DNA from: Gammaproteobacteria bacterium
GTDB taxonomy: Bacteria; Pseudomonadota; Gammaproteobacteria; SURF-13
DNA: 64,000 bases
NCBI GenBank assembly: GCA_038924245.1
Contig: JBCKVB010000003.1
Coordinates: forward strand, 358 to 64,357
Reading direction: 5' to 3'
Shown here piece after piece: positions 4,376 to 64,000 of the stretch; position 1 is the first letter of the stretch; every line of letters starts with the position of its first letter. Both the position numbers and the translations under genes were made by a program. Below the pieces are notes generated by a model. It did not search any database and was not told the DNA's origin. It worked only from the letters and a program-made list of their open reading frames with translations.

Positions 4376-5476
4376 CTAACTGCCGCCTGGGGCGGCCGGC
4401 GCCGGGCTGCTTGTTTGGCCGATGATGCGCACCGCCATGCCGTCGCGCAGCCGGGTCTGGCCGGCGGTCACCACCGTGTCGCCCGCGCTCAAGCCCGCGC
4501 TGATCTCCACCTTGCCGTTTTCGCGTTGCCCGGTCTCTACCTTGGTTTGCAGCGCCTTACCGTCCACGATGCGAAACACAAATTGTTCATCCCCGATGGG
4601 TACCAGCGCCTGCTCCGGCGCCAGCAGCGCCTGCGCGCGGCTCTCCAGCACCAGCGCCACGCGCGCGAACATGCCGGGGCGCAGGCGCTGTTCAGGGTTC
4701 GGGATGTGCGCGCGCAACAGCAAGGTGCGCGTTTGCTCATCCAGGCGCGGGTCTATGGCGTAGACCTTGCCGCCGAAAGTCTCGCTTGGATAGGCATCCA
4801 CCCGAGTGTTGACCTGTTGACCTTGTTTGATGCCGGCAAGGTAAATTTCCGGCACGCGGAAATCGAGTTTGAGCGATTGGATGTCTTCCAGGTTGACGAT
4901 GTCCGCGCCCTCCTTGATGTAATCGCCCGCGCTCACCTGACGCAAACCGAGCACGCCGGAAAACGGGGCATGAATGCGGGTTTTGGCCAGGCGTGCCTGT
5001 TGCAGATTGTGACGCGCGCGCGCCTCACTGAGGCGGGCGAGCGCTTCGTCGTAATTTTGCCGGCTCAGCAGCTGCTTCTCGAATATTTCCTGCGCGCGCG
5101 CAAAGTTGAGTTCGGCGAGTTTGACCGTGGCGGCGCTTTCGGCCAACTGGGCGCGCGGTTCCGCGTCATCGAGACTGATGAGCGGGGCGTTTTTCGCTAC
5201 CGCAGCGCCCTCTTGAAAATGAATCGCGGCGATGCGCCCGGCGATCTCGGAGCGGATCATCACCGATTCATTGGCGCGCAGCGTGCCCACGGCCGTGACC
5301 GCGCTCGTCACCGTGCCGGTTTCCACCACCACCGCTTCCACCGGGAGTGTCATACCGCCGGGCGGTGCGCCACCCTTGGACGCGCCTTGCCGCTCCCCGT
5401 CCGTGCAGGCGCCTGCCACAAGCAGCAACAGCGCGGTGAATAACCCTCTTCCAAGCAGGCGTATACAACGATTCAT
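4376..5476 (-). CDS. RND efflux periplasmic adaptor (membrane fusion protein, HlyD/AcrA family)
   Basis: 366-aa ORF with a lipoprotein-like N-terminus (LLLVAGAC), coiled-coil hairpin and beta-barrel segments. It sits 4 nt upstream of the RND gene. Confidence 0.9.
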   Translation of the reverse strand: MNRCIRLLGRGLFTALLLLVAGACTDGERQGASKGGAPPGGMTLPVEAVVVETGTVTSAVTAVGTLRANESVMIRSEIAGRIAAIHFQEGAAVAKNAPLISLDDAEPRAQLAESAATVKLAELNFARAQEIFEKQLLSRQNYDEALARLSEARARHNLQQARLAKTRIHAPFSGVLGLRQVSAGDYIKEGADIVNLEDIQSLKLDFRVPEIYLAGIKQGQQVNTRVDAYPSETFGGKVYAIDPRLDEQTRTLLLRAHIPNPEQRLRPGMFARVALVLESRAQALLAPEQALVPIGDEQFVFRIVDGKALQTKVETGQRENGKVEISAGLSAGDTVVTAGQTRLRDGMAVRIIGQTSSPAPAAPGGS

Positions 5477-5579
5477 GGTGTGAAAAATACCGGGTTTGAG
5501 TGAGTTTGCATGCGGGCGTGTTTAACGGATGATACCTGCAATACCGGTTACGGCACAGCTACAGCGGCCATCGGGCGCG

Positions 5580-6242
5580 TTAGAACACGAAGGCCTGCGG
5601 CTTGGGCGCGTTGACCAGCGGCGGGATGTCCGTTTCAAACAGGCTTTCGCGCGACCATTCACGGGGACCGAGACGGGTAATGAGCAAGGCTTCCATCGCG
5701 GGCGCTAGGCCCACGATCATAAACAGCCGCCCACCCACCTTAAGTTGCTCCTGAAAGTGCGCGCTGAACAGCGGCAACGAACCGGTCACGGCGATGACAT
5801 CATAAGGCGCGTGCTTCTTCCAGCCGTTCACGCCGTCGCCGGTTTCCAGCGCCGCGTTGAGGATGCCCCGCGCGGCGAGCGTCTGCCGCGCGCGCGCGCT
5901 GAAATCAGGATAGATGTCCACGCTGTGCACGTGTCGGGCGAGGCTGGCGAGCAGGGCGGTCAAATAGCCGCTACCGGTGCCGACCTCCAGCACCGTATCG
6001 GCGGGTTGCACGTCCAGCGTCTGAATCAGCCTGGCCTCGACCTTCGGGAGCATCATCACTTCACCGTGGCCGAGCGGGATATTCATGTCCGCGAACGCCA
6101 GGCTGCGGTATGGCGCCGGCACGAACTGCTCGCGCGGCATGCGCGCGAGCAGTTCGAGCACGCGCGGATCCAGCACCTCCCAGGTGCGGATTTGCTGTTC
6201 AATCATGTTAAAGCGGGCTTGCTCCATATTCAGGGGATTCAT
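5580..6242 (-). CDS. protein-L-isoaspartate O-methyltransferase family protein
   Basis: 220-aa ORF with the SAM-binding motif VLEVGTGSGYLTALLA and overall PIMT-like layout. Confidence 0.85.
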   Translation of the reverse strand: MNPLNMEQARFNMIEQQIRTWEVLDPRVLELLARMPREQFVPAPYRSLAFADMNIPLGHGEVMMLPKVEARLIQTLDVQPADTVLEVGTGSGYLTALLASLARHVHSVDIYPDFSARARQTLAARGILNAALETGDGVNGWKKHAPYDVIAVTGSLPLFSAHFQEQLKVGGRLFMIVGLAPAMEALLITRLGPREWSRESLFETDIPPLVNAPKPQAFVF

Positions 6243-6364: not shown

Positions 6365-6475
6365 ACGCAGCAGCTAGGGGTGTCCCGCACTAGTCCGATC
6401 AATAGTGCGGGGCTGAGAGAGCAAACCCTTTGAACCTGATCCGGTTTATCCCGGCGTAGGAAAGCGGCGTCCCTC
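6365..6475 (+). promoter_or_regulatory. TPP (THI-box) riboswitch in the thiC leader
   Basis: Conserved cores are visible: CTAGGGGTG...GGCTGAGAGAGCAAACCCTTTGAACCTGATCCGGTTTATCCCGGCGTAGGAAAGC. It lies about 35 nt upstream of the thiC Shine-Dalgarno (GAGGTGA) and start. Confidence 0.9.
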
Positions 6476-6842
6476 CGTGTTCCTGCGTCCCTGTCGTCGA
6501 GGTGAGTGATGAGCGCAGTGCCTGAAAAAATCCTGAGCAACACCGTCACGCTGGATGCGGCGGTCACGCGGCCGTTCCCGAATTCGCGCAAGGTGTACGT
6601 AATGGGCAGCCGCGCCGACATCCGCGTGCCGATGCGCGAGGTGACGCTTTCCCCCACGCCCGCGAGTTTCGGCGCCGAACCCAACCCGCCGGTGTATGTT
6701 TATGACACCTCCGGCCCGTATACCGACCCGGAGGCGCGGATTGGCCTGCGCCGCGGCCTGCCCGCCTTGCGCGCGGCGTGGATCGTGGAGCGCAACGATA
6801 CCGAACTACTGTCCGAGATTAGCTCGCAGAAGGAGCACACGG

Positions 6843-12741: not shown

Positions 12742-12963
12742 GGCATTGTTAAATTAGTATAGGAACCCCCGCTGTGTTGTCATTTCGCCGCTCCTGCGCA
12801 TCGCTATGCCTGCGGCACTTGTGCATCCCTGTACATCGAAGCGTAGCGAGAAATCTGTTACGAATAGCCTTCACTGTAATCAGGGCGTTACAAGATTTCT
12901 CCCGTGGGTCGAAATGACATGTGCGGGATTGATAAGAAATTACTATACTAAATTAACAATGCC
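12742..12963. mobile_element. MITE-like element, 222 bp, 21-bp terminal inverted repeats GGCATTGTTAA(A/T)TTAGTATAG
   Basis: Left end GGCATTGTTAAATTAGTATAG (12742-12762). Right end CTATACTAAATTAACAATGCC (12943-12963) is its reverse complement with 1 mismatch. Inside is a second inverted repeat, TGTCATTTCG/CGAAATGACA, and a diverged copy of the CAGGGATG hairpin repeat. No coding capacity. Confidence 0.7.
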
Positions 12964-12985
12964 GAAATTTTGTAGCCATCCGATT

Positions 12986-19332: not shown

Positions 19333-19409
19333 AGCGCATTCCTCTATTTTTCGCAGGGCAGATAATGGAAACTCATAGTACACGGCAACAACAATGCCAA
19401 GAAAAATAA

Positions 19410-19490
19410 GGCATTGTTAATTTAGTATAGCTTCCAGGCCCCCATTCCATTTAAGCATGAGAAGCATCACCGAATTAAATTAACAATGCC
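19410..19490. repeat. 81-bp element with the same terminal repeat as the 12742-12963 MITE, immediately upstream of gltB
   Basis: GGCATTGTTAATTTAGTATAG (19410-19430) and AATTAAATTAACAATGCC (19473-19490) match over 16 bp when inverted. An extra AACAATGCC half-site at 19390-19398 can pair with 19410-19418. Confidence 0.65.
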
Positions 19491-30719: not shown

Positions 30720-30857
30720 GACGTACAGGGATGTACTAGTGTCGCGGGAGGCAGGACGCCGGGAGCGACCGACGTACAGGGAAGAGCGCCAGCGAAGGGT
30801 TCAGGGATAGCGAAGGGTTCTGCTAGTGTCGCGGGAGGCAGGATGCCGGGAGCGGCC
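30720..30857 (+). repeat. Two tandem copies (51 bp + 87 bp) of the modular GACGYACAGGGA…GGGAGCGRCC repeat
   Basis: Copy 1 (30720-30770): GACGTACAGGGATGTACTAGTGTCGCGGGAGGCAGGACGCCGGGAGCGACC. Copy 2 (30771-30857) has the same ends plus AGAGCGCCAGCGAAGGGT and TCAGGGATAGCGAAGGGT modules. The ORF 30708..30926 is just this repeat read in frame. Confidence 0.85.
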
Positions 30858-31217: not shown

Positions 31218-33290
31218 ATGCCCCGTGATTATCTGGTGTTGCGCGTCGCGGTACCCGTGCCACTGCCGCGCTGGTTTGATTATTTAGCCCCGCGCGTCTG
31301 TCCACACCCGCCGCAACCGGGCATGCGCGTCAAGGTGCCGTTCGGACGCAGCGAGGCAGTGGGATTGATAATGGAGCTCGCCAACCAGAGCGCGCTGGGC
31401 GAGGGGCGCTTGAAACATGCCTTGAGTCTGCTGGATGAACAGCCGTTGCTGGATGAATCACTGCTCGGCCTGTTGCGCTGGGCGAGCGCTTATTATCACC
31501 ACCCCATCGGCGAAGTGGTGGCCGCCGCCTTGCCCGGACACTTGCGCGCCGGACGCGCCGCCTCGCTGGCTGATCCCGGCGACGCACAGGGAAGAGCGCC
31601 AGCGAAGGGTTCTGCTAGTGTCGCGGGAGGCAGGATGCCGGGAGCGACCGCGCTGGATCAGGGGCTGCTTGCGGCCGCGCCGCCCGTGCTGAACGGCGCG
31701 CAGCAACAAGCCGTCACCGAGGTGGCGGAGGCGCAAGGCTTTCAGGTGTTGCTCTTGCAAGGCGTCACCGGCAGCGGCAAGACCGAGGTGTATCTGCGCC
31801 TGATTGAGCGGGTGGTGGCGCGCGGCGCGCAAGTGCTGGTGCTGGCGCCGGAGATCGGCCTCACCCCGCAACTGCTGGCGCGTTTTCAGCAGCGTTTCGC
31901 CGTGCCGATAGCGGTTCTGCATTCCGCCCTGGGCGAGCGCGAGCGCGCACAGAACTGGCTCGCCGCGCGCGCGGGCCGCGCGCCCATCGTGCTCGGCACG
32001 CGCTCCGCCGTGTTCACGCCCCTTGCGCGGCCTGGCCTCATCATCATAGACGAGGAGCACGACGCCTCGTTCAAACAGCAGGACGGGTTCCGCTATCACG
32101 CGCGCGACGTCGCCATCCTGCGCGCGCAACGCGCCGGCATCCCGGTGCTGCTCGGCTCCGCCACCCCTTCCTTCGAATCGCTGTACAACGTGCGCCAGGG
32201 GCGCTACCGCGCGCTGAGTCTGCCGGAGCGCGCCGGCGGCGCGGCGCATCCGGAGATGCGGCTGCTGGACGTGCGCCATCAAGTGTTGCAGGGCGGCATG
32301 TCGGCGCCGCTGCTCGACGCGGTGGGCGAGCACCTGGCGCGCGGTGAACAGGTGCTGCTGTTTTTAAACCGGCGCGGTTTCGCGCCGCTGCTCATGTGCC
32401 ACGCCTGCGGCTGGAGCGCGCAGTGCGAACGCTGCGACGCGCGCATGGTGCTGTATCTCGATCAGGCGCGCGCTTTGCACTGCCAGCACTGCGGCGCGCA
32501 ACGCGCGCGCCCGGAGCAGTGCGCGGCGTGCCAGAGCGCCGAGCTGCGCGTGCTGGGTTACGGCACCGAGCGCGTCGAGCAAACCCTGCGCGAGCACTTT
32601 CCCGCCGCCGAGGTGCTGCGCATAGACCGCGACAGCACGCGGCGCAAGGGCGCGCTCGATGATCTGCTCGCGCGCGCGCAACAGGGTGGCGCGCAAATCC
32701 TCATCGGCACCCAGATGCTGGCCAAAGGCCATCACCTGCCCAATGTCACCCTGGCCGGGATACTCAACCTGGATCAAGGTTTGTTCGGGGCGGATTTCCG
32801 CGCCGCCGAGCGCATGGCGCAGCTCATCGTGCAGGTGGCGGGGCGCGCCGGGCGCGCGCACAAGCCAGGGCGGGTGCTGATCCAGACCCATCACCCCACG
32901 CACCCCTTGCTCACCGCGCTCATCCGTGACGGCTATGCCGCCTTTGCCGAGGCGGCGCTCACCGAGCGAAAACACACGCACTTGCCGCCTTACAGCAGTC
33001 TGGCGTTGCTGCGCGCCGAGGCGGTGAACCGTAGCGCGCCGCTGGAATTCTTGCGCGCGGCGCAGGCCGCCGCCGAACCTCTGGCCGGCGCCGCCGTACA
33101 GATACTGGGGCCGGTCAGCGCTCCCATGGAGCGGCGCGCCGGGCGTTACCGCGCGCAACTGCTGGTGCAAGCCGCGCGCCGTAATGAATTGCAGCGTCTG
33201 CTCGATGCCTGGATGCCGCTGCTGGAGACGATCAAGACCGCGCGCAAGGTACGCTGGTCGCTGGATGTGGATCCGGTGGAGATACTTTGA
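31218..33290 (+). CDS. priA: primosomal replication-restart helicase PriA (carries a 69-bp in-frame repeat insert)
   Basis: 690 aa with Walker A GVTGSGKTEVY, DEEHD, and the Cys-rich zinc region CHACGWSAQCERCDARMVLY…CQHCG…CAACQS. Confidence 0.95.
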   Translation: MPRDYLVLRVAVPVPLPRWFDYLAPRVCPHPPQPGMRVKVPFGRSEAVGLIMELANQSALGEGRLKHALSLLDEQPLLDESLLGLLRWASAYYHHPIGEVVAAALPGHLRAGRAASLADPGDAQGRAPAKGSASVAGGRMPGATALDQGLLAAAPPVLNGAQQQAVTEVAEAQGFQVLLLQGVTGSGKTEVYLRLIERVVARGAQVLVLAPEIGLTPQLLARFQQRFAVPIAVLHSALGERERAQNWLAARAGRAPIVLGTRSAVFTPLARPGLIIIDEEHDASFKQQDGFRYHARDVAILRAQRAGIPVLLGSATPSFESLYNVRQGRYRALSLPERAGGAAHPEMRLLDVRHQVLQGGMSAPLLDAVGEHLARGEQVLLFLNRRGFAPLLMCHACGWSAQCERCDARMVLYLDQARALHCQHCGAQRARPEQCAACQSAELRVLGYGTERVEQTLREHFPAAEVLRIDRDSTRRKGALDDLLARAQQGGAQILIGTQMLAKGHHLPNVTLAGILNLDQGLFGADFRAAERMAQLIVQVAGRAGRAHKPGRVLIQTHHPTHPLLTALIRDGYAAFAEAALTERKHTHLPPYSSLALLRAEAVNRSAPLEFLRAAQAAAEPLAGAAVQILGPVSAPMERRAGRYRAQLLVQAARRNELQRLLDAWMPLLETIKTARKVRWSLDVDPVEIL
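31581..31649 (+). repeat. 69-bp copy of the modular repeat inside priA (translated as DAQGRAPAKGSASVAGGRMPGAT)
   Basis: GACGCACAGGGAAGAGCGCCAGCGAAGGGTTCTGCTAGTGTCGCGGGAGGCAGGATGCCGGGAGCGACC. Nearly identical to the intergenic copy at 30771-30857 minus one 18-bp module. Confidence 0.9.
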
Positions 33291-33293
33291 CGG

Positions 33294-33380
33294 CAGAGAA
33301 AAGATACAAGAGAAAAGATACAAGGGAAGAGGTAAAATAACCGCTGATCCTTTCCTCTTTTCTCTTGCCTCTTTTCTCTG
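33294..33380. repeat. long imperfect polypurine/polypyrimidine hairpin (AGAGAAAAGATACAAG repeats) between priA and argS
   Basis: Left arm CAGAGAAAAGATACAAGAGAAAAGATACAAGGGAAGAGG. Right arm CCTTTCCTCTTTTCTCTTGCCTCTTTTCTCTG. A related single arm lies at 56539-56578. Confidence 0.7.
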
Positions 33381-37845: not shown

Positions 37846-37874
37846 AATGTATGACCTGTCCTTGTGAGCCTGGC

Positions 37875-40613
37875 ATGAAACCCTCTTTGTTACTGGTGGA
37901 CGGCAGTTCTTATCTGTATCGCGCCTTCCACGCGCTGCCGCCGCTCAACAATTCCCAGGGCGAGCCGACCGGCGCGGTGTACGGCGTGCTCAACATGCTG
38001 CGCAAGCTCAGCGCCGACACTCAGCCAAAATACATCGCGCTGGTGTTCGACGCCAAGGGCAAGACCTTCCGCGACGAGCTGTTCGAGCGCTACAAGGCGC
38101 AACGCCCCCCCATGCCGGATGACCTGGTGCGCCAGATCGAGCCGCTGTACGCCATTATACAAGCAATGGGTCTGCCATTAATAAGCCTCTCAGGCGTGGA
38201 GGCCGACGACGTGATCGGCACGCTCGCCATCCAGGCGGCGGCGCAGGGCATGGACACGCTCATCTCCACCGGCGACAAGGACTTCGCGCAACTGGTGAAC
38301 GGCCACATCACGCTCATCAACACCATGACCAATACGGTATTGGACCGGCAAGGCGTGATGGAAAAATTCGGCATCACGCCGGAACAGATCATCGCCTATC
38401 TCACCCTGGCGGGCGACGCGGCGGACAACGTGCCCGGCGTGCCCAAGGTGGGGCCGGTCACCGCGGTCAAGTGGCTTAACCAATACGGCACGCTGGCCAA
38501 CATCGTGGCGCACGCGCAAGAGATACCCGGCAAGGTGGGCGAGAATCTGCGCGCCGCCATCCCGCTACTGCCGCTGTACCAGCAAGTGCTCACCATCAAG
38601 TGCGACGTCGCGCTGCCGTGTACGCTGCTGGATTTGCAGCCGCGCGCGCCGGATGTCGCGGCGCTACGCCAGCTTTATCAACGCATGGAGTTCAAACGCT
38701 GGCTGGCCGATCTGGGTAAAGATATTAGCCCGGCGCAGAACAATACCCCCGCACCCTTCGCTTGCGCTCTTCCCTATAAGGGAGAGGGTAGGGGTGAGGG
38801 TGGAAAGATCGCCGGTACACAGGCACCTAACCCCCCCCCAGCGGCGCCGGTTACCTTCGAGACGCCAGGTTCCATCGAGGAACTGCAAAACTGGGCCGCG
38901 GCGCAGCGCGCTGCCACAACACTCACCCTGGCGCTGGAAACCTCTGACGCACAGGGACGTGCTAATGTCGCGGGAGGCAGGACGCCGGGAGCGACCGGCG
39001 CGGACTACATGCGCGACGAACTGACCGGGCTGGCATTGCAGACGGGAGAAGGCGCGGCGCTTTACCTTGCATTCACCGATGTCCTGCCGCGTGAGGCGGC
39101 GCTCGGTGCCTTGCGTGCGCTGTTACAGGATGCCGCCGTTGAAAAACGTGGGCACGATCTCAAGTTCGCGCTGAATGTGCTGGCGCGCTATGGCGTTGAC
39201 CTGCAAGGGCTGCGCTTTGACGTGATGCTGGAGTCCTATGTGCTGGACAGCACCGCCACGCGGCACGATCTTGCCGCGCTGTGTGAAAAATACCTGGGCG
39301 CGAAGGCGACCGACGCTTGCGCACAACGCCTTTCCGCGCTGCAACGGTTGCACGAACTGCTCTGGCCGCAGTTGCAAAAAATCGCGCCCTTAAAAAAATT
39401 ATTCACCGAGATTGAAATGCCGCTCATTCCGGTGCTGGCGCGCATCGAGCGCGCCGGAGTGGGCGTGGATGTGCGTCTTCTAAACGCGCACAGCGAACAA
39501 CTCGCCGCGCGCCTCAAGCAACTAGAAGATCAGGCGTATCAAATGGCCGGGCAGATGTTCAACTTGAGCTCGCCGCAGCAACTACAGGGCATCCTCTACG
39601 ACAAGCTCGGCTTGCCGGTGCTGAAAAAAACGCCCAAGGGCCAGCCCTCCACGGCGGAGGAGGTGTTGCGGGAACTGGCGCTCGATTATCCGCTGCCCAA
39701 GCTGATTCTGGAGCAGCGCACGCTGAGCAAGCTCAAGTCTACTTACACCGATCGCCTGCCGGAACAAGTCAACTCCGTCACTGGGCGCGTGCACACGCGC
39801 TATCATCAGGCCGTCACCGCCACCGGACGCCTGTCGTCCAGCGACCCCAATCTGCAAAACATCCCGGTGCGCGGCGAGGAGGGCAAGCGTGTGCGCGCGG
39901 CGTTCATCGCGCCCGCCGGTTATCAATTACTCTCCGCCGATTATTCGCAGATCGAACTGCGCATCATGGCGCACCTCTCCGGCGACGCGCGCCTGAAGCA
40001 CGCCTTCGCGGGCAATCAGGACATCCACAAGGCCACCGCCGCCGAGGTGTTCGGCGTCAAACTCGAACAGGTGAGCGCGGAGCAGCGGCGTGCCGCCAAG
40101 GTCATCAACTTCGGATTGATCTACGGCATGTCGGCGTTTGGCTTGGCCAAACAACTCGGCGTGCCGCGCGAGGCGGCGCAGCAGTACATGACACTGTATT
40201 TCGCGCGCTACCCCGGCGTGCAGGCGTTCATGGAACGCACGCGCGCACAGGCGCGCCAGCAAGGTTACGTGGAAACCTTATACGGCCGGCGCCTGTATCT
40301 GCCTGAGATCAACAGCCGCAACGGACAACTGCGCCAATACGCCGAGCGCACCGCCATCAACGCGCCCATGCAGGGCAGCGCCGCCGACATCATCAAGCTC
40401 GCCATGCTGCGTATTGACGCCTGGCTGCAACAAAACAAGTTCAACGCGCGCATGATCATGCAAGTGCATGACGAATTGGTGTTCGAGGTGGCGGAACAAG
40501 ACTGTGGGGCGTTGGCCGACGCGGTGCGCCGCCTGATGACCGGCATCGAAGGCCTGTCCGTCCCCTTAAGCGTGGATATCGGCATAGGCCGCAACTGGGC
40601 GGTGGCGCATTAA
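37875..40613 (+). CDS. polA: DNA polymerase I (carries two different in-frame repeat inserts; 3'-5' exonuclease motifs look degenerate)
   Basis: MKPSLLLVDGSSYLYRAFHALPPL… (5' nuclease domain). Polymerase motifs A (LLSADYSQIELRIMAH), B (RRAAKVINFGLIYG) and C (QVHDELVFE). The alternative ORF-track start is 37851. Confidence 0.95.
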   Translation: MKPSLLLVDGSSYLYRAFHALPPLNNSQGEPTGAVYGVLNMLRKLSADTQPKYIALVFDAKGKTFRDELFERYKAQRPPMPDDLVRQIEPLYAIIQAMGLPLISLSGVEADDVIGTLAIQAAAQGMDTLISTGDKDFAQLVNGHITLINTMTNTVLDRQGVMEKFGITPEQIIAYLTLAGDAADNVPGVPKVGPVTAVKWLNQYGTLANIVAHAQEIPGKVGENLRAAIPLLPLYQQVLTIKCDVALPCTLLDLQPRAPDVAALRQLYQRMEFKRWLADLGKDISPAQNNTPAPFACALPYKGEGRGEGGKIAGTQAPNPPPAAPVTFETPGSIEELQNWAAAQRAATTLTLALETSDAQGRANVAGGRTPGATGADYMRDELTGLALQTGEGAALYLAFTDVLPREAALGALRALLQDAAVEKRGHDLKFALNVLARYGVDLQGLRFDVMLESYVLDSTATRHDLAALCEKYLGAKATDACAQRLSALQRLHELLWPQLQKIAPLKKLFTEIEMPLIPVLARIERAGVGVDVRLLNAHSEQLAARLKQLEDQAYQMAGQMFNLSSPQQLQGILYDKLGLPVLKKTPKGQPSTAEEVLRELALDYPLPKLILEQRTLSKLKSTYTDRLPEQVNSVTGRVHTRYHQAVTATGRLSSSDPNLQNIPVRGEEGKRVRAAFIAPAGYQLLSADYSQIELRIMAHLSGDARLKHAFAGNQDIHKATAAEVFGVKLEQVSAEQRRAAKVINFGLIYGMSAFGLAKQLGVPREAAQQYMTLYFARYPGVQAFMERTRAQARQQGYVETLYGRRLYLPEINSRNGQLRQYAERTAINAPMQGSAADIIKLAMLRIDAWLQQNKFNARMIMQVHDELVFEVAEQDCGALADAVRRLMTGIEGLSVPLSVDIGIGRNWAVAH
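38767..38803 (+). repeat. G-rich REP-type element (CTCTTCCCTATAAGGGAGAGGGTAGGGGTGAGGGTGG) inside the polA interdomain linker
   Basis: Hairpin followed by a GGGT-rich tail. Translated in frame as …LPYKGEGRGEGG…. A similar hairpin-plus-GGGTTCGGGGT element lies in the gltB-gltD spacer (14470-14510). Confidence 0.7.
38946..38996 (+). repeat. 51-bp copy of the modular repeat inside the polA exonuclease domain (translated DAQGRANVAGGRTPGAT)
   Basis: GACGCACAGGGACGTGCTAATGTCGCGGGAGGCAGGACGCCGGGAGCGACC. Same orientation and reading frame as the priA copy. Confidence 0.9.
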
Positions 40614-45389: not shown

Positions 45390-45466
45390 TGGTCGGGGTG
45401 AGAGGATTTGAACCTCCGGCCCCTAGCTCCCGAAGCTAGTGCTCTACCAAGCTGAGCTACACCCCG
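45390..45466 (-). tRNA. tRNA-Pro (anticodon CGG)
   Basis: The reverse complement CGGGGTGTAGCTCAGCTTGGTAGAGCACTAGCTTCGGGAGCTAGGGGCCGGAGGTTCAAATCCTCTCACCCCGACCA folds as a cloverleaf. Anticodon loop TTCGGGA. CCA is encoded. Confidence 0.95.
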
Positions 45467-47369: not shown

Positions 47370-47451
47370 GCGAAAGTGGCGAAATCGGTAGACGCGCTGG
47401 TTTTAGGTGCCAGTGGGGCAACCCGTGAGAGTTCGAGTCTCTCCTTTCGCA
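47370..47451 (+). tRNA. tRNA-Leu (anticodon TAG)
   Basis: GCGAAAGTGGCGAAATCGGTAGACGCGCTGGTTTTAGGTGCCAGTGGGGCAACCCGTGAGAGTTCGAGTCTCTCCTTTCGCA has a long variable arm and anticodon loop TTTAGGT. CCA is not encoded. A TATAAT hexamer lies at 47344-47349. Confidence 0.95.
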
Positions 47452-53860: not shown

Positions 53861-53936
53861 GGGTGCTTAGCTCAGCTGGGAGAGCGTCGCCTTTACACGG
53901 CGAATGTCGGGGGTTCGATCCCCTCAGCACCCACCA
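53861..53936 (+). tRNA. tRNA-Val (anticodon TAC)
   Basis: GGGTGCTTAGCTCAGCTGGGAGAGCGTCGCCTTTACACGGCGAATGTCGGGGGTTCGATCCCCTCAGCACCCACCA folds as a cloverleaf. CCA is encoded. Confidence 0.95.
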
Positions 53937-53942
53937 GCAACA

Positions 53943-54019
53943 GGAGTGGTAGTTCAGCTGGTTAGAATACCTGCCTGTCACGCAGGGGGTCGCGGGTTCG
54001 AGTCCCGTCCACTCCGCCA
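53943..54019 (+). tRNA. tRNA-Asp (anticodon GTC)
   Basis: GGAGTGGTAGTTCAGCTGGTTAGAATACCTGCCTGTCACGCAGGGGGTCGCGGGTTCGAGTCCCGTCCACTCCGCCA. CCA is encoded. Confidence 0.95.
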
Positions 54020-56538: not shown

Positions 56539-56578
56539 GTTTCTTTTCTCTTGTATCTTTTAACTTTTCTCTGCCTCT
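56539..56578. repeat. single-arm copy (reverse orientation) of the AGAGAAAAGATACAAG polypurine repeat
   Basis: GTTTCTTTTCTCTTGTATCTTTTAACTTTTCTCTGCCTCTC is the complement of the left arm at 33294-33332. It lies between convergent DUF3579 and dksA. Confidence 0.65.
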
Positions 56579-59434: not shown

Positions 59435-59485
59435 GGTCGCTCCCGGCGTCCTGCCTCCCGCGACACTAGTGCATCCCTGCACGTC
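59435..59485 (-). repeat. 51-bp copy of the modular repeat at the 5' end of the kinase gene
   Basis: The minus-strand sequence GACGTGCAGGGATGCACTAGTGTCGCGGGAGGCAGGACGCCGGGAGCGACC has a core identical to copy 30720-30770. Confidence 0.9.
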
Positions 59486-63575: not shown

Positions 63576-64000
63576 ATGGAACTGCGCGTAATGTTAATTC
63601 TGGCCGGCGCGTTGCTCGTTCTCGGCTTGTATCTGTGGGAAAGATACCGGCGCGCCTCCGCAACACGGCGCGCCTCGGTCCGGCAAACGCCTGTTGTGGC
63701 GGAACAGCAGCCCGGCCAGTTCCCGCCCGCCAAGCCGCTGACGCCTCCGCCTCTGCCGGGAGCGCCGCGGCAGGTCATCGCACTGCACGTCATTAGCCGG
63801 GAAAATTTACCCGGGCCGGACATCATCGCCGCCCTGAACGCCGCGGATATGCAGTTGGGGCCGATGCGGATATTCCACCGTTGGCCGCCTGCGCCGCACG
63901 AGGCAGGAGGCCGGGAGCGACCGCCGGAGTCCGGGTCACCCCCCCAGCCTGTATTCAGCCTGGCCAATATGGTTGAGCCAGGCCATATACCCGCCGAACA
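63576..64000 (+). CDS. zipA: cell division protein ZipA (N-terminal about 141 codons; continues beyond the window)
   Basis: Not in the ORF track because it has no stop in the window. My translation is MELRVMLILAGALLVLGLYLWERYRR… (TM), a P/Q-rich linker, then …VIALHVISRENLPGPDIIAALNAADMQLGPMRIFHRW…PVFSLANMVEPG, which matches the ZipA FtsZ-binding domain. smc-zipA order is conserved. Confidence 0.85.
   Translation, partial: MELRVMLILAGALLVLGLYLWERYRRASATRRASVRQTPVVAEQQPGQFPPAKPLTPPPLPGAPRQVIALHVISRENLPGPDIIAALNAADMQLGPMRIFHRWPPAPHEAGGRERPPESGSPPQPVFSLANMVEPGHIPAE

Follow-up and report, generated by a model that had tools for sequence, protein, structure and literature searches.

An apparently new family of small double-hairpin repeats in Gammaproteobacteria and its in-frame insertion in polA

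The window analysed here is a stretch of 64,000 nucleotides (nt) from a metagenome-assembled genome (MAG) of a gammaproteobacterium of the GTDB lineage SURF-13 (assembly GCA_038924245.1, contig JBCKVB010000003.1, positions 358 to 64,357 of the forward strand). It contains polA, the gene for DNA polymerase I (Pol I), and this gene holds 51 bases that are probably one copy of a mobile element, structured, non-coding by origin and presumably non-autonomous, which resembles the repetitive extragenic palindromes (REPs) and the Rickettsia palindromic elements (RPEs). Comparison of filled and empty sites shows that a dispersed repeat has truly inserted here, in an ancestor that the members of a narrow clade shared recently; the explanation, taken as a whole, is held with good, though not full, confidence.

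The polA open reading frame (ORF) extends from 37851 to 40613 on the plus strand; its likely start is the ATG at 37875, which gives a product of 912 residues with a 100% match to the database entry P0001. The insert is made of the codons GAC GCA CAG GGA CGT GCT AAT GTC GCG GGA GGC AGG ACG CCG GGA GCG ACC, encoding DAQGRANVAGGRTPGAT, and contains two hairpins, GCAC-AGGGAC-GTGC and GTCGC-GGGA-GGC-AGGAC-GCC-GGGA-GCGAC. Alignment with 16 PolA homologues places exactly 17 added residues between ETS and GADYM, and alignment to E. coli Pol I sets their start two residues past the Glu357 equivalent, directly after the Exo I position of the 3'-5' exonuclease domain. A preliminary description of this DNA had reported an in-frame copy of a 51-bp repeat at 38946-38996, adding about 17 residues in the same orientation and frame as a copy in priA; coordinates and content are exact, and the priA copy indeed reads ...SVAGGRMPGAT. 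The wording "directly after the Exo I motif" is right for the position and not for the motif, which is degenerate (LALETS vs FDTETD, with Ala at D355).

The insert is also present in PolA of relatives at 95% (P0002), 88% (P0003) and 89% (P0004) identity, the last two with a variant six residues longer. LALETS and GADYM adjoin without gaps at 79, 78 and 74% identity (P0005-P0007), at 62-64% (P0008-P0010) and in all more distant PolA; these orthologues lack the segment altogether and do not carry an unrelated one of equivalent length. At the DNA level, where syntenic contigs of three relatives were aligned to the window, the 79% relative has a clean empty site (GAG ACA TCC / GGC GCC GAC); a filled polA site is exactly 51 nt longer than the empty one, except in the 88% relative L004, where the difference is 69 nt and an 18-nt module stands in place of part of the hairpin-2 loop, and the insert DNA of the window and of L005 is 100% identical. 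A second site, in the transpeptidase domain of PBP1A (mrcA), is filled in L005 (1575-1625) and L004 (211-279) and empty in the window (~29500) and in L002; here window and L005 differ by exactly the 51-nt unit, with flanks identical across the aligned stretch. No target-site duplication was found at the filled and empty sites of polA or PBP1A beyond a 1-nt ambiguity. As judged from these alignments, presence and absence of the unit in PBP1A indicates recent gain, precise loss or recombination.

The repeat is dispersed both in the window and far beyond it. The 30-nt core GTCGCGGGAGGCAGGACGCCGGGAGCGACC occurs in five copies in the window at up to 3 mismatches, vs 0.00 expected from 100 shuffles, and a degenerate sixth copy is found in zipA (Table 1); the unit between queF and the sugar-kinase gene has an orthologous copy in the MAG JAMCTV01 (L085). 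The zipA copy is an old one, placed between the IFHR and FSLANM motifs of a gene at 63576-64000 (Pfam ZipA_C, E = 1.4e-9). A family scan took a single genome for each GTDB species and used a pattern fitted to short and long core variants: among the matches listed, exact cores are present in at least 113 stretches from 75 assemblies, and the hosts are overwhelmingly Gammaproteobacteria; two of the listed assemblies, one a Streptomyces and the other a deltaproteobacterial MAG, match the gapped pattern by chance. Several uncultured lineages are represented by multiple sampled loci (GFS_7033, SMAG_U13110, FK_Sedi_A_Bin.151 and others), and further carriers are Thiohalophilus, Sedimenticola, Acidiferrobacterales, Gilvimarinus, Photobacterium and a Solemya symbiont. 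In cultured Halomonas, Alcanivorax, Parendozoicomonas and Nitrosomonas eutropha the copies are mostly in hsdM, the methylase gene of type I restriction-modification systems. Single hsdM copies were seen in L017, L044, L089, L095, L098 and L103 (Endobugula, Nitrosomonas eutropha, Halomonas casei, Parendozoicomonas, Sedimenticola and Alcanivorax) and recur at two loops, after YHAWRG and before GGR.GI.L; hsdM may have been a horizontal vehicle for part of the wide taxonomic spread of the family.

This distribution bears on the simplest alternative, namely that local gene conversion between polA and priA, or mis-assembly of a MAG, produced the insert. The two copies do lie 7.3 kb apart on one strand, and the data are metagenome-assembled genomes; however, the same polA site is filled in three more independently assembled relatives (P0002, P0003 and P0004), the window holds five copies plus the degenerate one, and exact cores occur in at least 75 assemblies, cultured isolates included. 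The repeat is thus not confined to polA and priA, and the census refutes this alternative, whose probability is practically nil.

The unit is 51 nt long and is best delimited as Y-GAC...GCGAC. Its ends are sharp: positions 1-21 and 49-51 are conserved and the outer flanks are random, and positions outside the search pattern carry no ascertainment bias. Position -1 is a pyrimidine in 100 of 101 copies; positions 1-4 are G, A, C and G in 97, 82, 75 and 96 of 103 units, respectively, with GATG, GCCG and GCTG as common variants. The family consensus is GACGTACAGGGAnGTACTAGT GTCGCGGGAGGCAGGATGCCGGGAGCG ACC (full consensus GACGTACAGGGATGTACTAGTGTCGCGGGAGGCAGGATGCCGGGAGCGACC). Tandem arrays have a period of 51 nt (L108), and the variant lengths, 51, 69 and 87 nt with a sub-module of 18 nt, are all multiples of three. 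In L010, L011, L025, L052, L060, L074 and L100 a plus unit appears to be nested in, or fused with, a minus unit, giving long palindromes with arms of ~29 nt; some nested palindromes are read through in genes, namely DnaE (L011), Cmk (L100) and MurD (L113).

The top strand of the unit folds in two hairpins with GGA in each loop. Hairpin 1 has a 4-bp stem (G-C, Y-R, N-N, C-G) and a 6-nt loop, ANGGAN; hairpin 2 has a two-tier stem of 5+3 bp, and the 3' end of the unit is GCGAC(C). Pairs were counted on 96 distinct units, with 500 shuffles and 3' partners slid by 1-3 columns as controls: standard pairs occupy 99.0% of the cells vs 93.3% in the shuffles, and cells changed on both sides are 77 vs 20.6, values which none of the 500 shuffles reached in either case, and with slid partners merely 19-52% of the cells pair. 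In hairpin 1, pair 5:16 is U-A in 51, C-G in 37 and G-C in 3 units, pair 6:15 is A-U in 62, G-C in 17 and C-G in 10, and pair 4:17 is G-C in 88, A-U in 5 and C-G in 1. Hairpin 2 is fixed by the search pattern, and divergent copies were recovered with a profile instead; these show compensatory variants of the outer stem GTCGC/GCGAC (GTCAC/GTGAC, GCCGC/GCGGC, GTCGT/ACGAC and GCCGT/ACGGC) and of the inner stem GGC/GCC (AGC/GCT and GAC/GTC). All eight one-sided changes in helix 2 (8/8) leave G.U wobbles, an indication that folding takes place on the top strand. Covariation of the stems also changes the encoded residues (V..CT, A..RA, A..SA, V..WT); the constraint thus acts on nucleic-acid structure and not on the peptide.

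The element is stop-free in four of the six frames, where it encodes the peptides DVQGCTSVAGGRMPGAT (F1), TYRDVLVSREAGCRER (F2), GRSRHPASRDTSTSLYV (R1) and VAPGILPPATLVHPCTS (R2); F3 and R3 contain TAG or TAA in most variants. A census of ORFs at 131 copies assigned 41-48 to F1, 13-16 to R2, 12-15 to R1 and 8-9 to F2, with 38 copies lacking a spanning ORF. Codon-position GC periodicity was dropped for frame calls, being too strict in genomes of middle GC content, where it missed the genuine polA copy, and Pfam verification was used: domains were recognized on both sides of the element in 10/10 F1 and 10/10 non-F1 cases (20/20). Verified hosts are, for R2, an ABC ATPase, LigA, Era and MutL; for F2, DnaE and RecJ; for R1, Mpl, GlnD, a UvrA-like protein and a phosphomannomutase with three tandem units; and for F1, a ClpB-type AAA+ protein, three class I tRNA synthetases, three HsdM, a UvrD-like helicase, MetE and ribonucleotide reductase. 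Frame F1 is enriched, with ~48 of 88 genic copies (~55%) vs 22 expected (chi-square p = 3.5e-9, the copies being not fully independent). Thus, the earlier idea that a single frame is tolerated does not hold, since four stop-free frames are used in Pfam-verified proteins and the zipA copy is in F2; the frame census over the sampled loci found F1 favoured, and F2, R1 and R2 used as well. Copies are spanned by long ORFs in 69-75% of cases vs 77-81% of random positions at the same loci (p = 0.07), so the element is barely depleted from coding sequence; by our arithmetic, random insertion minus the two stop-containing frames predicts ~73% genic copies, near the observed value.

The insert might be left untranslated, either removed from the RNA or bypassed by the ribosome, as happens with the 50-nt coding gap of phage T4 gene 60; the size of the unit is near that of known bypass gaps, the element is strongly structured and it is tolerated in many essential enzymes. 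Removal would tolerate F3, yet this stop-containing sense frame is essentially absent among genic copies (at most one ambiguous case vs 48 F1 and 9 F2), which argues that the element is translated and not removed before decoding. Moreover, the lengths of 51, 69 and 87 nt and the 18-nt sub-module, all divisible by three, are relevant only if the DNA is read through, and Rfam gave no match to a ribozyme or intron family; an untranslated insert is therefore considered highly improbable.

A role of the folded strand as RNA was also weighed. According to it, each transcribed unit would be a regulatory module exposing two GGA hairpins of the CsrA/RsmA type, by which copies in and outside genes would recruit or titrate CsrA, a global regulator. 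CsrA-sponge RNAs are typical of Gammaproteobacteria, to which most carriers of the family belong. The RsmE-derived consensus (A/U)CANGGANG(U/A) is matched by hairpin 1, the commonest form of which, GUACAGGGAUGU, agrees with the SELEX (in vitro selection) consensus RUACARGGAUGU at 12/12 positions, the exact 12-mer being present in 19 copies (both consensus sequences as quoted in PMC6849547). CANGGANG lies in hairpin 1 of 101 of the 122 short-core copies vs 0.2% of shuffled modules; hairpin 2 shows the loop AGGAY on a covarying stem, the GGA motifs are ~25 nt apart, and the G.U wobbles fit folding of the top strand, as this reading needs. However, an RNA role predicts sense orientation and the prediction fails: 27 of 82 genic copies are antisense to the host gene (55 sense), intergenic copies between co-directional genes are split 6:6, and the sense excess of genic copies is wholly due to F1, as a filter on the peptide predicts and an RNA function does not. 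In addition, the motif match was noticed post hoc on a single family consensus, an enzyme acting on DNA could just as well be what recognizes the GGA loops, and the CsrA sites are here sequence predictions. This reading is hence retained with a low probability.

The landing site in polA is far less dramatic than a hit close to an active site would suggest. Compared to E. coli Pol I, the columns of the full DEDDy set (D355/E357, D424, Y497/D501) hold A, E, A, A and R (D355A, E357 kept, D424A, Y497A, D501R); L361A is a further change, and ~28 residues are missing before Exo III. The loss of the exonuclease site spans the polA codons at 38928-38945 and around 39140-39350. The dead state is common to all relatives down to 62% identity, insert-free ones included, and more distant gammaproteobacterial homologues keep canonical FDTET, NLKYD and YAAEDAD motifs; the 3'-5' exonuclease was thus inactive before the repeat arrived, which removes most of the drama implied by the preliminary description. 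Taq and Bst Pol I also have an inactive 3'-5' exonuclease, and the clade studied here is predicted, from its substitutions, to have lost Pol I proofreading independently. Likewise, in the vestigial-exonuclease Pol I of the Taq/Bst type the exonuclease fold is retained and catalytic carboxylates and segments are lost; the likeness concerns the host context and not the insert, and the loss described here is a separate gammaproteobacterial event.

The Klenow-like fragment was modelled with AlphaFold on an alignment of 79 sequences, and the state of the loop was judged by the predicted local distance difference test (pLDDT) and by DSSP. The mean pLDDT is 91.5 and the predicted template modelling score 0.91; the model superimposes on Klenow structures with template modelling (TM) scores of 0.89-0.91, and also on the Bst and Taq fragments. 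Only one segment, residues 41-48, falls below a pLDDT of 50; it lies within the insert (model residues 32-48), which is bordered by the strands at 23-31 and 56-64, and both Pfam matches of the exonuclease domain start only past the insert. As proposed for checking by the earlier note, the insert therefore appears as a low-confidence loop in a confidently predicted fold; according to this model it is most likely translated as a disordered loop on the surface that affects the polymerase little or not at all.

These data bear on a further alternative, an adaptive protein insertion, in which the 17 residues would have been kept for a new function in PolA (and PriA), such as that of a loop through which both contact a replication or repair partner. 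In its favour, the same peptide is found in the same frame in two replication proteins, the insert DNA of window and L005 is fully conserved, family copies lie in DnaE, LigA, MutL, RecJ, a UvrA-like protein and UvrD-like helicases, and REP inserts have been described as over-represented in genes for replication and repair, with speculation on mutation rate (PMC3733652). On the other hand, the peptide changes wherever the stem covaries, so that selection acts on pairing and not on residues; the frame in which this DNA is read differs between proteins, four being in use; the hosts include unrelated enzymes such as MetE, ribonucleotide reductase, Era, MurD, Mpl, PGM and tRNA synthetases; and the insert, predicted to be disordered, sits in a catalytically dead domain and is missing in close relatives. 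An adaptive origin appears very unlikely.

That two essential genes were hit in the same frame, which had been attributed to one tolerated frame or to a targeting bias, finds another explanation. Beyond the pyrimidine at -1 no targeting bias was seen, nor a GC-skew strand bias. In PriA the copy occupies the linker that joins the 3'BD domain (residues 9-106) to the helicase core (which starts at 158), and in PBP1A it is found where the transpeptidase domain is variable; the hits in two essential genes are thus explained by filtering for sites that permit an insert. In L004, an unrelated 78-nt (26-codon) palindromic element, CCCTCTCCACGGAGTGGAGAGGG ... CTCTCCC..GGGGAGAG, was observed in frame in the polA linker (L004:11000-11300) and in the priA linker (L004:~1800-1950), so that a second repeat family has struck these two genes as well, in independent events. 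Whichever small element is active accumulates in the same permissive segments.

In-frame insertion of small palindromes, Pol I included, has already been published, and the unit looks like an apparently new family of such repeats. The extreme case is that of the Rickettsia RPEs, hairpin repeats found in frame in unrelated and often essential genes (Ogata et al. 2000, 2002, as reported in the review PMC10969869). Like the unit, RPEs, as described there, are read through as extra peptide at permissive sites and have a large intragenic fraction, and the unit indeed shows in-frame read-through into unrelated ORFs. Unlike it, they measure ~100-150 bp and are restricted to Rickettsia in that description; the unit has 51 nt, two short covarying hairpins and gammaproteobacterial hosts, free-living and symbiotic and of many orders, and it is used in four frames and in both orientations. 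Di Nocera, De Gregorio and Rocco (2013; PMC3733652) described intragenic REPs tagged by GTAG or CGTC, often in replication and repair genes; their hosts include DNA polymerase I (R. palustris RPE_4821, residues 338-367), uvrA, dnaE and recB. The CGTC-type REPs have no dedicated transposase and allow TGTC and CCTC as tag variants; their families have a single 8-9 bp stem with A/T as first and second pairs, a loop of 4-5 nt and a CCA tail, and are mainly alphaproteobacterial (same source). Like them, the unit starts in most copies with GACG, i.e. CGTC on the other strand, and forms dimers and arrays. Membership of the CGTC families was ruled out, as the unit has a 4-bp stem with a 6-nt loop plus a second hairpin and no such tail. 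GTAG and CGTC REPs are mostly extragenic, unlike the unit; the consensus has no terminal GTAG on either strand and the copies are not predominantly extragenic, so that an assignment to GTAG REPs or REPINs was also rejected.

Elements of the REPIN-RAYT and IS200/IS605 systems share part of the behaviour of the unit: single-strand hairpins, no target duplication, clean insertion and absence, inverted dimers and persistent populations within lineages (RAYT, REP-associated tyrosine transposase). Of the features of IS200/IS605 (PATE-like) elements, hairpins and lack of duplication were seen, the target, a conserved 4-5 nt in such elements, is reduced to the pyrimidine at -1, and the strands, judged by GC skew, are split 64:53; the unit differs from these systems in that no conserved tetranucleotide target and no strand bias were found, nor a flanked RAYT or TnpA in the 8-kb windows around the sampled copies. 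A classical miniature inverted-repeat transposable element was ruled out, because the single unit has neither terminal inverted repeats nor a target-site duplication.

Searches for the unit in reference collections were negative. Rfam gave no family at the gathering threshold and, at a permissive one, only a spurious match to a vertebrate long non-coding RNA (12.7 bits vs a cut-off of 55); the four frame peptides returned only noise in Pfam; no match, and no sign of a vehicle, came from plasmid and phage collections, and a literal text search of a collection of papers for the sequence and its peptides found no match. A query with the F1 peptide in three tandem copies gave 202 candidates and 11 weak short-ORF matches in a protein database, and is uninformative on the scale of the family. 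The family is apparently undescribed, and is set apart from RPEs and CGTC REPs by the descriptions of these.

As for origin, the probable course would begin with insertion of the unit into polA in the recent common ancestor of the narrow clade. The unit may spread as a folded single strand by transposition, with an enzyme acting in trans that, by the closest analogy with REP-RAYT and IS200/IS605, would be of the HUH/Y1 type. Selection would then purge copies which bring stops, land in non-permissive sites or disrupt folding, and F1 would fare best because it encodes a small, flexible and polar peptide. The copy in polA would have persisted owing to its length, a multiple of three with no stop in the frame used, to the small, flexible peptide rich in Gly, Ala, Thr and Pro encoded by that frame, and to its landing in the beta1-beta2 loop of an exonuclease domain already devoid of catalytic residues.

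Several points weigh against this account. No enzyme is linked to the element, and the only RAYT-like gene in the ~0.8 Mb of sampled loci has different REP flanks; there is no conserved multi-base target beyond the pyrimidine at -1; and no GC-skew strand bias is seen (64:53, p = 0.36), although elements of the IS200/IS605 type are often strand-biased. The intragenic fraction depends on ORF criteria, with Pfam verification of 20 cases; translation of the insert is deduced and not observed; the exact-match scan itself accounts, by ascertainment, for part of the core conservation; and the PBP1A pattern is compatible with precise loss, independent gain or recombination between populations, which MAG consensus sequences cannot separate. 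The RAYT-like gene was the single match of E. coli RayT (phmmer) among 4675 ORFs of all loci, taken as 8-kb windows around the sampled copies. In that locus (L053:5326-6114) a gene of the RAYT type (5459-5990), with the motifs HLHF and YIHFNPVKRGYV, has on either side a different REP array, made of TTCCCACGCTCCAGCGTGGGAA and GACGCTCCAGCGTC hairpins; the locus is a classical REPtron, unrelated to the element studied here.

The insert is, almost certainly, a loop that a vestigial domain tolerates; it is an ordinary and probably neutral trait of polA, not to be annotated as a functional feature of PolA or as a disrupted proofreading site. The family offers a natural experiment on the tolerance of essential enzymes to random peptides (DnaE, LigA, MutL, RecJ, tRNA synthetases, ribonucleotide reductase, ZipA, PriA and PolA), and extends selfish DNA inside genes, best known from Rickettsia, to free-living and symbiotic Gammaproteobacteria. 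A frequency in genes about equal to that outside them, sharp ends, covariation, recent insertions and deletions and the lack of a linked transposase make it a good system for studying the movement of transposase-orphan, REP-like repeats; in metagenomic data the element also inflates and fragments protein-family alignments. A bolder proposal, to which only a small chance is given, is that of a previously undescribed element of codon length (51 = 17 x 3 nt, sub-module of 18 nt), a double hairpin adapted to life inside genes across many gammaproteobacterial orders, with two ANGGA-type loops as possible CsrA/RsmA sites. If true, the transcribed copies of a genome, numbering in the hundreds, would together make up a distributed CsrA-binding layer; alternatively, the element would use CsrA, or a similar protein binding hairpin GGA motifs, for its own propagation. 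In a weaker version, it would be an active, transposase-orphan single-strand element, and, as genomes 95% identical differ by clean 51-nt units, the mobility of orphan REPs would become tractable to experiment.

Table 1. Repeat units and related features of the window
Feature	Position	Strand	Remarks
polA, DNA polymerase I	37875..40613	+	5'-nuclease, degenerate 3'-5' exonuclease and polymerase domains (model and Foldseek)
Canonical unit inside polA, 51 nt (17 codons)	38946..38996	+	frame F1, DAQGRANVAGGRTPGAT; nhmmer E = 1.1e-14
Exo I strand remnant LALETS	38928..38945	+	D355 equivalent is Ala, E357 equivalent kept; insert follows directly
Long variant in priA, 69 nt (23 codons)	31581..31649	+	frame F1, DAQGRAPAKGSASVAGGRMPGAT; 18-nt module in hairpin-1 loop
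Canonical intergenic unit upstream of priA	30720..30770	+	hairpin 1 GTACAGGGATGT, the family majority form
Second intergenic unit upstream of priA, in tandem, 87-nt variant	30771..30857	+	18-nt modules reiterated
Canonical intergenic unit between queF and sugar-kinase gene	59435..59485	-	
Degenerate copy in zipA, C-terminal FtsZ-binding domain	63872..63922	+	4 core mismatches; frame F2 (HEAGGRERP)
Second, separate insert in polA interdomain linker	38744..38778	-	inverted 18-nt sub-module of the family (AGGGAAGAGCGCAAGCGAAGGGT)

The linker of polA between the 5'-nuclease and exonuclease domains (38744-38815) also holds repeat DNA. The inverted sub-module found there is missing from the 88-95% relatives, as are the extra linker residues seen only in the window (APFACAL...); it adjoins the motif GGGAGAGGGTAGGGGTGAGGG, which is common to all close relatives (...PHGGEGGGEGE...) and looks like a different, widespread hairpin repeat. 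Two further repeats of the window are AT-rich. The first, GAGAAAAGATACAAG, unrelated to the GC-rich element, is reiterated at 33292-33380 as an inverted pair between priA and argS and recurs at 56543-56575; the second, a 37-nt inverted repeat (84% complementary) at 12943-12979 and 19394-19430, brackets ~6.4 kb and may represent the ends of a mobile element or island. Finally, Rfam recognizes a thiamine pyrophosphate (TPP) riboswitch and four tRNA genes in the window (6366-6479; 45393-45466; 47370-47451; 53861-54016), none of which overlaps the repeat.

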